Source of the DNA: Thermoleophilia bacterium
Lineage (GTDB): Bacteria > Actinomycetota > Thermoleophilia > Gaiellales > SKUG01
Assembly: GCA_025964555.1 (NCBI GenBank)
Contig: JAOPYQ010000013.1
Location: forward strand, 14,771 to 78,770
Reading direction: 5' to 3'
Length of the DNA: 64,000 bases
Positions within the stretch are counted from its first letter, which is position 1. Each line of letters opens with the position of its first letter. The position numbers and the translations under genes were made by a program. Below, piece after piece: positions 9,293 through 12,594 of this stretch. The notes below the pieces were generated by a model. It saw only the letters and a program-made list of their open reading frames with translations. It did no database searches and had not been told where the DNA came from.

Positions 9293-9940
9293 CTACGGTC
9301 GCGTCTCGAGCAGCCCGCGGTCGAGCGCCCAGCGCACGAGGTCGGCGCGCGAATCCAGTCGGAGCTTCGCCATGGCATGTGCGCGGTGGGTCTCCACCGT
9401 GCGCACGCTCAGGTGCACGAGCTTCGCCACCTCGGCGTTCGTGTGGCCCAGCGCGAGCAGGCGGACGACCTCGCGTTCACGGTCCGAGAGCGGATCTGCG
9501 GGCGGCGCGGTCGATGCCTTGACCATCGCTGCTCCGAGCGGCGGGTACAGGTATCGCTCGCCGCTGCGGATCGCCTCGATCGCGGCCACGAGTTCGTCTT
9601 CGGCGGCGTCCTTGACGAGGTAGCCCTCGGCGCCGGCGGCGAACGCGCGTTCCACCCGTTCGGGCTCGTCGTGCATGCTGAGCACGAGGATCCGGCTGCC
9701 GCGGCCCTTCGCCTGGAGCGTCTCCACCAGGTCGAGGCCGTCGGCGTCGGGCAGGGTGATGTCGAGCACGACCACGTCCGGGCGCTTGATCTCGACGAGC
9801 TCCACGGCGTCCTTGGCGGTGCCCGCCTCCCCGCACACGGTGATGCCGTCCGCATGCTCGAGGATGCGGCGAAGGCCCGCGCGAACGACCGCGTGGTCGT
9901 CGACGAGGAGCACCTTGGTGTCTGGAGCGGCATCGGACAT
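9293..9940 (-). CDS. NarL/FixJ (LuxR-HTH) family response regulator
   Basis: VLLVDDHAVVRAGL, VVLDITLP, GYLVK, LSDREREVVRLLALGHTNAEVAKLVHLSVRTVETHR. Confidence 0.95.
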   Translation of the reverse strand: MSDAAPDTKVLLVDDHAVVRAGLRRILEHADGITVCGEAGTAKDAVELVEIKRPDVVVLDITLPDADGLDLVETLQAKGRGSRILVLSMHDEPERVERAFAAGAEGYLVKDAAEDELVAAIEAIRSGERYLYPPLGAAMVKASTAPPADPLSDREREVVRLLALGHTNAEVAKLVHLSVRTVETHRAHAMAKLRLDSRADLVRWALDRGLLETRP

Positions 9941-9982
9941 GCAGCTAGTCTGCCAAACCGGACCGACGGGCAGGATGACCGA

Positions 9983-11638
9983 GTGAAGCAGCACCTCGAA
10001 CATCTGGAGACGCTGGCCGAGGCAGGCATCTCGCTCGCGCTCGCCCGAGACGCGCAACACTGCTGCGAGCTGCTGCGCGACTGGACTGCGCGACTGGTCT
10101 CCACGGAGACGATCGGCGTCACCTACAGCGGGGAGCTCGGGACCATCGCGATCGGGACGCTCCCGGACGGAATCGGTGCCGATGCGGCGCCGCAGGGCGG
10201 CGGCACACCCTCGACGAATGGGTGGCACGTGGTCGACATCGCGCATCCAGACGTCGACGAATCCTCGTGGACGTCGCAGCTCTGGTTCGCGGAGCCTGCC
10301 GACGACCACTGGCGCGTGACGACCGGCGTCCTGGCGCGCCAGGCCGGGGTCGGGCTCGCTCGCGTGCTGAGGCGGTCGGAGCTCACCCGCCATGAACGCG
10401 CCCAGCAGGCGCTGGTCGAGGCGGGCAAGGCGCTCAGCTCGGAGCGAACGCTCGACGGAGTCCTCCGGCTCATCGTCGAGCACGCGATGGAGCTGACCGG
10501 TGCGCGCTACGGAGCGCTCGGCGTGCTCGACGACAAGAGCGAGGGGCTGGCGGCGTTCGTCACGGTAGGCATCGACGAGCACACCCAGGAGCTCATCGGC
10601 GACCTGCCGCGCGGTCGCGGCATCCTCGGGGTACTGATCGACGATCCACGCCCGCTGCGCCTTCGCCGCCTGCAGGATCACCCGAAGTCGGCAGGATTTC
10701 CCGACCACCATCCTCCGATGGGTTCGTTCCTCGGCGTGCCGATCGTCACGTCGCGCGGCGTCGCGGGTCGCATCTACCTGACCGAGAAGCAGGGCGCGCC
10801 CGAGTTCACGGCAGACGACGAGCAGCTCGTGGAGACGCTGGCGTCGCAGGCCGCGATCGCGATCTACAACGCGGCACTCAACGACGAGCTCGCACGCACC
10901 GCCGCGGAGCTTCGCGAGGCGAGCCGGCACAAGTCGGCCTTCCTCGCGAACATGAGCCACGAACTCCGCAGCCCGCTCAACACGATCATCGGCTACACCC
11001 GGCTGCTGCTGGAAGATCCGCGCGAACTCGATTCGGAACAGCTCGAGGACCTGGAGATCGTGCGCAGCTCGAGCGAGCACCTGCTCGCGCTCATCACCGA
11101 CCTGCTCGACCTGCAGCGCATCGAGGCGGGGCGTGTCTCGCTCGCGCTCGCCGACGAGGACCTGTCGGCCTTGGTGGGGGCGGTCATCGCGAGCATCCGC
11201 CCGTCGGTCGCGGACGGCGTGGAGCTCGTCGCCGACGTGTCGGCCCTCGCCGACCCGGTCGTTCGATGTGATCGCACGCGCATCCGGCAGGTGCTGCTCA
11301 ACGTGCTCGGCAACGCCATCAAGTTCACCGAACAGGGTTCGGTCGAGCTCGTGGTGCGTGACGACGGCGGATCGAACCGGGTCGTGGTCGAGGTGCGCGA
11401 CACCGGGCCCGGAATCCCCGAGGACGACCAGCGCCGCATCTTCGATTCGTTCTTCCAGTCACAGGCGGCGATCGGTCGGACGCCCGACCGTCGCGAGGGG
11501 GCCGGGCTCGGATTGGCGATCACGAAGATGCTCGTCGACCTGCATGGCGGCGACGTGCACCTCGACTCCACGCTCGGGTCCGGCACGACCGTGACCATCG
11601 AGCTGCCGCGCGATGCGGCGAGCGCGGTGGACACGTGA
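9983..11638 (+). CDS. Cytoplasmic sensor histidine kinase with DosS/DevS-like GAF and HisKA/HATPase domains
   Basis: GAF: ARYGALGVL...GFPDHHPPMGSFLGVPI...IYLTEK; H-box FLANMSHELRSPL; NAIKFT, DTGPGI, GAGLGL; GTG start inferred. Confidence 0.92.
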   Translation: MKQHLEHLETLAEAGISLALARDAQHCCELLRDWTARLVSTETIGVTYSGELGTIAIGTLPDGIGADAAPQGGGTPSTNGWHVVDIAHPDVDESSWTSQLWFAEPADDHWRVTTGVLARQAGVGLARVLRRSELTRHERAQQALVEAGKALSSERTLDGVLRLIVEHAMELTGARYGALGVLDDKSEGLAAFVTVGIDEHTQELIGDLPRGRGILGVLIDDPRPLRLRRLQDHPKSAGFPDHHPPMGSFLGVPIVTSRGVAGRIYLTEKQGAPEFTADDEQLVETLASQAAIAIYNAALNDELARTAAELREASRHKSAFLANMSHELRSPLNTIIGYTRLLLEDPRELDSEQLEDLEIVRSSSEHLLALITDLLDLQRIEAGRVSLALADEDLSALVGAVIASIRPSVADGVELVADVSALADPVVRCDRTRIRQVLLNVLGNAIKFTEQGSVELVVRDDGGSNRVVVEVRDTGPGIPEDDQRRIFDSFFQSQAAIGRTPDRREGAGLGLAITKMLVDLHGGDVHLDSTLGSGTTVTIELPRDAASAVDT

Positions 11639-12015
11639 CGAATCCCCGGCTCGTGCTGGTCGACGACGACGCTGCGGCGCGACGCATGATGCGGCGCGTG
11701 CTCGAGCGACGCGGCTATCTCGTCGACGAGGCGGCGGACGGCCGCACCGGGCTCGACATGATTCGCGCCGACGCACCCGCGGCGGTGCTGCTCGACCTGC
11801 GCATGCCCGGCGAGCTGTCGGGCATCGACGTCGCGGCCAAGCTGCGCGCGGACCCGGCGACGGCGCCGATCCCAATCATCGTGGTGAGCGCCAGCACGCA
11901 CCTCGACGCTCGTGGCCTCGTCGAGGAGGTCGGATGCGATGCGTTCATCGAGAAGCCGGTCGACTTCGACGAGCTCGACCGCGTGCTCGCCGAGTTCGCT
12001 CCGCGCACGGACTGA
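11635..12015 (+). CDS. Single-domain response regulator (receiver only)
   Basis: LVDDD, LLDLRMP, VVSA, FIEKP; GTGA overlap with the kinase stop. Confidence 0.93.
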   Translation: MTNPRLVLVDDDAAARRMMRRVLERRGYLVDEAADGRTGLDMIRADAPAAVLLDLRMPGELSGIDVAAKLRADPATAPIPIIVVSASTHLDARGLVEEVGCDAFIEKPVDFDELDRVLAEFAPRTD

Positions 12016-12036
12016 CCACGACCCCCTGGCGGTCGT

Positions 12037-12594
12037 TCACCCGAGCTGCAGGGTGAGCAGCGCCTCGTCCTCCACCAGGTCGAGACGCCCCCCGCACGCG
12101 TGCGCGAGCACGATGAGCACGGCCGCGAGCCCCGGCGGGACACCCCCCGCATGCAGTGCGATCGCGATGTCGGCCTCGCCCGCGTGCACGGTTGCGACGA
12201 TCGACGGCGTCGGCCCGGCATAGTGCAGCACGTCGGTGACGAGGCGCTCGGCAACCGTTCCCGGCACGGCGACGACGACGTCGTCGAACGCGTGCTCGGT
12301 CGATTCGATCGCCGCCCCTTCCCGCCGGGCGCGACGCATCGCGAGGGCGACGAGCTCCGCCAGCGCGAGCGGCTCGGAGGCTCCGGCCCGTCCCAGTTCG
12401 ATCCGCGCGAGCGTGACCGCCCGCTCGACCGTCACCTGCAGCGCGCGGGTCGATGCGGCAAGGGCGTCGGCGACCTCGGGATCCTCCTGGAGCTGCACCA
12501 CCGAGCGCAGCGTCGCCACGTGGTTGCGCAGGTCGTGCGCGCTGCCGGACAGCAGCAGCGCGAGGGTGGAGCCATCGTTCGTCGGGGTCGCCAT
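12037..12594 (-). CDS. Degenerate histidine-kinase-like protein (DHp His kept, ATPase motifs eroded); possible phosphotransferase
   Basis: LLLSGSAHDLRNHVATL H-box; no N-box Asn or DxGxG; remnant LAHACGGRLDL; no sensor domain; AGGAG RBS. Confidence 0.6.
   Translation of the reverse strand: MATPTNDGSTLALLLSGSAHDLRNHVATLRSVVQLQEDPEVADALAASTRALQVTVERAVTLARIELGRAGASEPLALAELVALAMRRARREGAAIESTEHAFDDVVVAVPGTVAERLVTDVLHYAGPTPSIVATVHAGEADIAIALHAGGVPPGLAAVLIVLAHACGGRLDLVEDEALLTLQLG

Follow-up and report, generated by a model that had tools for sequence, protein, structure and literature searches.

In mycobacteria the DosS/DosT-DosR system (DevS/DevR) joins a heme GAF domain, with a proximal His and a distal Tyr, to a NarL-type output regulator (PMC4082495). 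Biochemical precedents for relays of another kind are the Pak-SdrG-PhyT-PhyR relay of Sphingomonas (PMC5898713) and the Caulobacter pathway from several kinases through MrrA and PhyK to PhyR (PMC5964349), both of which combine a kinase, a receiver-only protein, a kinase-derived His protein with a degenerate ATPase and a regulator. The window analysed here, a stretch of 64,000 nucleotides from a Thermoleophilia bacterium (Gaiellales, SKUG01), carries four adjacent signalling genes that recall all of these systems: a sensor kinase which shares with DosT the two heme-pocket residues and most of the heme-contact segment, a receiver-only protein, a pseudo-histidine-kinase of 185 amino acids (aa) and a NarL/LuxR-type response regulator. 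The four genes are one conserved signalling unit: all four phospho-acceptors are conserved, the genes co-occur and in one lineage two of them are fused. Our best reading of this unit, towards which we lean modestly, is a His-Asp-His-Asp relay that would run from His326 of the kinase to Asp54 of the receiver, His20 of the 185-aa protein and Asp60 of the regulator.

The genome of the window (G000) is 64% complete and was compared with eight other genomes (G001-G008) of the same actinobacterial family, whose members are uncultured, giving nine family genomes in total. An earlier note on this DNA had placed the four genes at coordinates that we confirm (Table 1), and the motifs that it quoted (GFPDHHPPMGSFLGVP, IYL, SHELRSPL and AHDLRNH) are found as given. 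Its claim of translational coupling between kinase and receiver is also confirmed, the receiver start lying on the kinase stop codon in a GTGA overlap (11635/11638). The arrows of its title do not follow the gene order; the four genes are not a single operon in G000, where the regulator gene is divergent and the 185-aa gene convergent.

The kinase contains Pfam GAF_2, HisKA (72.5 bits) and HATPase_c domains and gave no HisKA_3 match in the Pfam scan, in agreement with the fusion of a GAF to a HisKA-class H-box noticed earlier. The GAF aligns without difficulty with PDB 2vzw (E 7e-41). In the DosT numbering taken from PMC4082495, His243 corresponds to His147, Tyr265 to Tyr169 and Gly180 to Gly85 (Glu87 in DosS), and the heme-contact segment is IGDLPRGRGI in the kinase and IGSLPEGRGV in DosT (PMC4082495). 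The domain had been matched to DosS GAF-A; the proximal His and the distal Tyr stand, the DosS identity does not, since the Gly at this position makes the GAF DosT-like. In an alignment of 48 orthologs (the window protein and 47 of 120 listed matches), His243 is kept in 47, with one gap, Tyr265 in all 48 and Gly180 in 46, while the N and G1 boxes are present in 46-47. We infer from these residues that the GAF binds heme and reads O2/NO.

Residues 1-140 are a further, degenerate GAF copy (hhalign 76%, E 2e-5) placed before the heme GAF; the H-box follows the latter after about 25 residues, with no GAF-B. The top six NCBIfam matches of the kinase, all below cut-off, are TorS, BarA, HrmK, LuxQ, PRK15347 and ArcB, which are models of hybrid or relay kinases, and the closest PDB match of its core is 7z8n, GacS. 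Such kinases are mostly hybrid and their fused receiver is phosphorylated first. Because the core resembles hybrid kinases, the product of the overlapping receiver gene would be the natural first acceptor. No receiver is fused to the kinase here, the two being encoded by separate overlapping genes in G000 and in G001-G007. The DosT-like GAF on a HisKA core also exists in other lineages and is not unique to the family. A hybrid kinase from another lineage, P0217, combines a DosT-like GAF and an H-box of the same type with two receivers in one chain; the split kinase-receiver pair could plausibly have come from a donor of this kind. The N-terminal extension of the kinase is a different one in the G004 lineage (L047 1031-3427; P0205, P0206); it contains a stretch resembling a coiled coil and one more H-box-like motif (HRMANP), and may represent another DHp, unrelated to the first, joined to this kinase.

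The earlier note had suggested a search for co-occurrence in related genomes. In eight of the nine family genomes the 185-aa protein, the receiver and the regulator each have a single strong match. The heme GAF was found in seven, where the kinase is whole; the G006 kinase is a fragment at a contig end, and G008 (52% complete) matched none of the components. The same family genomes had served to build the profiles, but a search with single sequences gave the same loci in G001-G006; moreover, the G002 receiver was recovered though absent from the receiver alignment. The 185-aa gene lies inside the cluster in seven of the eight carriers, under differing arrangements. It is convergent on the receiver gene in G000, G005, G006 and G007, and in G001 with one gene between (five of eight carriers); in G003 it stands directly behind the regulator gene on the same strand, and in G002 the protein is fused to the kinase N-terminus. 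Another G002 contig carries the kinase end, the receiver, the SQR-like (sulfide:quinone-reductase-like) gene and the regulator, all on one strand. The encoded proteins of the two contigs overlap, but the sequences are not the same, and the locus is presumably continuous. The kinase-185-aa fusion was present in three of the 120 kinase matches scanned, with the His kept, and the three are probably one event. In metagenomes, 8 of the 12 clusters on contigs of at least 3.5 kb (30 looked up) come from contigs of exactly the same length as one that bears a kinase ortholog, a rough proxy, and two of these eight are NCBI records, one being G005 itself. The comparative evidence that the four genes belong together is strong. 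As for the fear that the 185-aa gene might not be conserved, it is single-copy, His-invariant, tied to the cluster and, in one lineage, fused to the kinase.

Four sister families were compared, with 23 of 34 GAF matches fetched. The H-box is of HisKA_3 type in all 23 sister GAF kinases (recognised by pattern in 15 and by eye in 8), whereas the kinases of the family are HisKA in 7/7. In 20 of the 21 sister genomes with such a HisKA_3 GAF kinase, no more than about 3 kb separates its GAF from the best-matching regulator ortholog. In a 44-row regulator tree the eight regulators of the family form a clade (100/99) nested in a clade (99/99) with 22 sister regulators, and the 14 paralog rows fall apart from these. 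The nesting and the HisKA_3 neighbours together indicate that the regulator was inherited, that the kinase class changed and that the middle genes appeared with the change. The receiver subfamily, present in the eight carriers, was found in 0 of 392 other genomes of the order, all from the sister families (E <= 1e-30), where the 185-aa profile gave weak matches only (best 3e-15 vs 8e-42 or better in the family), in open frames of 256-962 residues, mostly of full-kinase size and not read singly. Judged from the sequences, the two middle genes track the change from HisKA_3 to HisKA. The GAF tree (88/74) does not separate a core swap in place from replacement of the whole kinase. In G000 itself three HisKA_3 kinases were found, each beside its own NarL-type regulator, and no Hpt or ChpT domain was found in this genome at 64% completeness. 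DevR is only fourth among the closest PDB matches of the regulator. A low specificity for HisKA kinases has been predicted for NarL/DevR-type regulators (PMC7911359).

The 185-aa protein has a sub-threshold HisKA match (E 0.005) and no HATPase match in the Pfam scan. The codon bias of its open reading frame is gene-like (GC3 0.90), and its ratio of non-synonymous to synonymous substitution rates (dN/dS) against G005 is 0.19, similar to the values for the receiver (0.19) and the kinase (0.21). A profile search of 1.84 billion representatives returned 67 matches at E <= 1e-10, nearly all of them stand-alone proteins of about 180-230 aa or fragments, and the family comprises about 60 sequence clusters at 50% identity. 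We aligned 67 members of 157-234 aa (7 of 10 from one search and 60 of 150 listed profile matches; fragments, near-duplicates, the fusion and full-length kinases were left out), whose median pairwise identity is 26%. His20 is kept in 67/67, a figure somewhat favoured by the retrieving profile, which rewards the His; the Arg at H+3 is kept in 66, whereas the kinase-specific acid at H+1 is relaxed (45/67). There is also a conserved basic patch formed by Arg88 (67/67) and Arg91 (62/67). The patterns NxxxNA and GxGLGL occur in none of the 67 and DxGxG anywhere in only four, so the N, G1 and G2 boxes of an active HisKA kinase are missing, and the H-box without N and G boxes that had been read from the AHDLRNH motif is real. 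Since H+1 is Arg in one sequence only, the HRxxN H-box of PhyT/PhyK is not present either, and the members, at 157-234 aa, have no counterpart of the membrane-anchored sensor region of PhyT.

An AF2 model of the protein (pLDDT 92) consists of a DHp hairpin and a CA-like domain, and its best fold match is 6lgq (Z 14.0, rmsd 3.4, 178 residues aligned). The fold matches listed are kinases and kinase-like proteins, including DivL and RetS; ChpT and Spo0B structures are not among the matches listed, which leaves room for such a similarity. The HPTransfase profile (PF10090), a check that the earlier note had put forward, gave no match for 16 members of the family and was over cut-off in 0 of the nine family genomes, the Caulobacter control being positive. 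Alignment of the family to ChpT by hhalign has a probability of 33% over 29 H-box columns, with no Pro at H+5, and the Pfam SPOB models gave no match to its members at E <= 1. By profile, then, the protein is not a member of the ChpT or Spo0B family. The description ChpT/Spo0B-like holds for the architecture, a conserved-His DHp with a CA-like domain without ATP-binding boxes, and fails for family membership. The protein belongs to an unnamed pseudo-kinase family, and the named homologs of both this protein and the kinase are labelled Thermoleophilia or Gaiellales. A search with the 67-sequence alignment found no longer relatives, a weak blank because the three fusions surfaced by another route. 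In the ESM Atlas there are unnamed look-alike clusters (feature score 0.98, 204-223 aa) from Verrucomicrobiota, Gemmatimonadota and Myxococcota. In one set of these, 23% of the members carry HisKA, and stand-alone pseudo-kinases of about this size may be more widespread.

In the receiver, the D+2/T+2 residues are Arg/Ser, compatible with relay and sink alike. Metagenome and genome contigs scanned with the receiver alignment yielded generic receivers only (28-48% identity) and were not used.

The family-wide rewiring is real, and the relay step itself is likely. The conservation of the 185-aa gene and the sister-family pattern support a shared pathway, and the relay is therefore its best reading; this much of the relay interpretation of the earlier note survives, with the ChpT/Spo0B membership lost and the phosphotransfer as a prediction. 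In this relay the DosT-like GAF would bind heme and sense O2/NO, and the kinase would autophosphorylate His326 and pass the phosphate to Asp54 of the receiver, kinase and receiver together amounting to a hybrid kinase in two pieces. Next, the 185-aa protein, itself blind to ATP, would take the phosphate from the receiver on His20 and hand it to Asp60 of the NarL-type regulator, which would switch on low-oxygen genes, among them those for the SQR-like and NirK-like proteins and the small membrane proteins, and may do so by way of a TGCGG-N5-CCGCA box. The regulator would derive from the HisKA_3 two-component pair found across the order, and the middle proteins would bridge the gap left after kinase replacement.

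Several observations weigh against the relay. The β4 motif of the receiver is VSAS in place of FxSGY/FATGUY, although FATGUY is not found in all relay receivers (PMC9981736). By eye, the helix-1 face of the regulator is little changed from that of the partners of HisKA_3 kinases, and Hpt domains occur in six of the nine family genomes. The genomes are kin, so that the association may be one evolutionary event and not eight, and for the association as a whole a single event is probable. The genes lie on opposite strands in G000, and in G004 the 185-aa gene is on another contig. These two arrangements would also be expected of unrelated neighbours, or of a 185-aa gene that is a decayed kinase fragment; the dN/dS of that gene, its many sequence clusters and a linkage that survives several rearrangements and a fusion largely refute this idea, which we consider hardly credible. 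The 185-aa protein could instead be a non-catalytic pseudokinase that controls the kinase by heterodimerising with it or scaffolding it, the kind of control exerted by RetS and DivL. Its fusion to the kinase N-terminus in three sequences, the presence of DivL and RetS among the structural matches and the basic patch, which suggests a binding surface, all fit such a role, but the invariant His and the Arg at H+3 are hard to explain without chemistry and the receiver is left with no explained function, so that we think it very unlikely.

The main rival of the relay is a dedicated phosphatase split off from the kinase, in which case the kinase would phosphorylate the regulator, the receiver or both, and the Asn at H+4 of the 185-aa protein would reset them. 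In HisKA proteins phosphatase activity depends on Asn/Thr at H+4 and kinase activity on the residue at H+1 (PMC3510030). The 185-aa family has Asn at H+4 in 62/67 members (Gly, Ser or Thr in the other five), which together with the relaxed H+1 is a kinase-dead, phosphatase-competent signature (PMC3510030); the kinase, for its part, has Ser and not Thr/Asn at H+4 in 38 of 48 orthologs, which could leave the phosphatase job open, and no paper on Ser at this position was found in the literature searched. In the three ChpT proteins retrieved, H+4 is Ser in one, Gly in another and Asn in the third. The kinase fusion and the regulator linkage fit this explanation equally. It is weakened by the His being kept more strictly than the Asn, since in CrdS the His hardly matters for phosphatase activity, although in PleC it does (PMC3510030), and by the kinase-class mismatch, which stays unexplained. 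PhyT, moreover, was initially described as a phosphatase and turned out to be a phosphotransferase (PMC5898713). We regard a phosphatase as unlikely; by analogy with PhyT, a bifunctional 185-aa protein is possible (PMC5898713). In a further alternative the kinase would phosphorylate the regulator directly, and the receiver and the 185-aa protein would set the threshold from a side branch, by draining or storing phosphate in the manner of LovK/LovR or NmpT. Phosphate sinks in which a receiver acts alone or together with a kinase-like partner have been described (PMC11841059, PMC5964349), crosstalk from HisKA kinases to NarL proteins has been reported in vitro (PMC7911359), which also counts against the need for a relay, and it is the receiver gene that the 185-aa gene most often faces. 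The regulator, which came down from a HisKA_3 pair, would then have to be recognised by a HisKA core of hybrid type, and the G003 arrangement does not fit well either, so that we find a side branch quite unlikely.

Table 1. Position of the signalling genes, of neighbouring genes and of candidate operator sites in the window
Feature	Position	Strand	Remarks
SQR-like flavoprotein	8009..9193	-	match below cut-off; likely target
Candidate operator, TGCGG-N5-CCGCA type, upstream of SQR-like gene	9270..9284	.	same position in G001, G003, G005; tentative
NarL/LuxR-type response regulator, 215 aa (Asp60, Ser88, Lys110)	9293..9940	-	Pfam Response_reg + GerE; likely output of system
Sensor kinase, 551 aa	9983..11638	+	degenerate GAF 1-140, DosT-like heme GAF ~151-300, HisKA DHp (His326), intact CA domain
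Kinase His243 codon, equivalent to DosT proximal heme ligand His147	10709..10711	+	alignment to 2vzw
Kinase Tyr265 codon, equivalent to DosT distal Tyr169	10775..10777	+	alignment to 2vzw
Receiver-only protein, 126 aa (Asp54, Ser85, Lys107)	11635..12015	+	Pfam Response_reg alone; likely relay intermediate
Pseudo-histidine-kinase, 185 aa; DHp with His20 (codon 12535-12537) and CA-like domain without N/G boxes	12037..12594	-	predicted phosphotransferase
Copper nitrite-reductase-like (NirK-like) protein	13669..14919	+	TIGR02376 170 bits vs cut-off 296; probable start 13822; likely target
Candidate operator upstream of NirK-like gene	13727..13741	.	also in G005; tentative
Candidate operator upstream of membrane-protein gene 15031-15717	15034..15048	.	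site also before G005 ortholog; tentative

In G001, G002, G003 and G005, too, the SQR-like gene adjoins the cluster; the NirK-like gene is its neighbour in G005 as well. These neighbours, with hemerythrin and cupin genes, point to low-oxygen physiology. The genes for membrane-type proteins of 71 aa (12719-12934) and 228 aa (15031-15717), which have no Pfam family, recur near the cluster in relatives. The SQR-like gene is followed, without a change of strand, by genes for DsbB, a thioredoxin-like protein and DUF2269 (6287-8049). Genes for DsbB and thioredoxin are flanking neighbours of the cluster in G001 and G005 as well, and in G006 DsbB stands after the regulator. A GC-rich sequence of about 40 bp, with palindromes inside it, occurs twice in nearly identical form between the NirK-like gene and the next gene (14916-15031).

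The 15-bp palindrome pattern of the candidate operator was drawn up with the loci already in view. With a matrix trained on only four sites from other genomes, the window sites rank 2nd, 4th and 9th in G000, two of them being orthologous to training sites. The 3rd-ranked site lies on contig C20 before paralogs of the small and 228-aa membrane genes of the window, which form an adjacent pair there (L294 532-1426), and the top site, on contig C41, precedes no recognised low-oxygen gene; near it is a sequence that by eye reads as tmRNA-like (L293 2617-3070). There is no excess of the motif in the window at two mismatches (86 vs 105 expected), no enrichment genome-wide against permuted matrices, and no excess over a reversed-pattern control in the nine genomes (54 vs 48 forward matches). 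The operator is tentative because the motif is not enriched genome-wide, its support being its position before orthologous genes. The displaced 185-aa homolog of G004 (L013 5258-9749) lies between a putative sulfate-permease gene and genes for DoxX and a zinc alcohol dehydrogenase, and two candidate sites (8513 and 8539) are found near it, so this gene may still belong to a co-regulated cluster.

How two-component pairs give rise to multi-step phosphorelays is a question usually approached by inference from distant phyla. In the present case a single order contains both the earlier and the later state, the regulators are orthologous, and all parts are small and predicted to be soluble. If the relay through the 185-aa protein is true, the locus would be a natural before-and-after case of phosphorelay evolution, with a DosT-type heme sensor wired through a relay and an independent origin of a pseudo-kinase phosphotransferase in Actinomycetota. 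Should the phosphatase explanation be right, there would still be an unnamed family of stand-alone DHp-CA phosphatases. No paper on the 185-aa family or on such a relay in Thermoleophilia was found in a search that covered few subscription journals, and the accessible part of PMC12471899 describes no such system.

Compared with DosS/DosT-DosR, the kinase here has a HisKA core and not HisKA_3, its heme GAF is preceded by a degenerate GAF and followed by none, and the system has two extra proteins. The sister-family GAF-(GAF)-HisKA_3 and NarL pair shares the orthologous regulator and the same heme-GAF motifs; it is a plain two-gene system, and neither middle gene was found in the 392 genomes. 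In the BarA/UvrY and GacS/GacA pathways a hybrid-type HisKA core feeds a relay to a NarL/LuxR regulator. RcsC-RcsD-RcsB is built in the same way (PMC12471899). All these systems have a fused receiver and, as the third step, a four-helix Hpt, whereas here the receiver is separate and a DHp-CA protein is predicted to take the third place. NmpRSTU of Myxococcus xanthus is another four-gene, heme-dependent low-oxygen system with a receiver-only member (PMC11841059), with a protoglobin sensor of its own, NmpT as a proposed sink, NmpS re-phosphorylating from ATP and an NtrC-like output (PMC11841059). Rv0600c-Rv0601c-TcrA is a two-kinase, one-regulator system (PMC3544749). The PhyT and PhyK systems use HWE/HisKA_2-type HRxxN proteins, PhyT being membrane-anchored, and a sigma-mimic output (PMC5898713, PMC5964349), in contrast to the soluble HisKA-derived protein and NarL-type DNA binder found here. 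CckA-ChpT-CtrA also has a small pseudo-kinase, with DHp and degenerate CA, in the place predicted here for the third step (PMC9981736). The 185-aa protein differs from ChpT and from the protein of the Spo0 relay in having no PF10090 or SPOB match and no Pro at H+5. A small DHp protein with degenerate CA is likewise the third step of KinA-Spo0F-Spo0B-Spo0A. We judge the chances about even that an unnamed minimal His-phosphotransferase family, kinase-derived and independent of Spo0B, ChpT and PhyT, arose in one Thermoleophilia family and, with a split-off receiver, turned an inherited DosT-like two-component oxygen switch into a four-step relay onto the same regulator, while the sisters keep the two-component version. 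Such a system would work like the Spo0B, ChpT and PhyT relays, yet it appears to be an independent invention.

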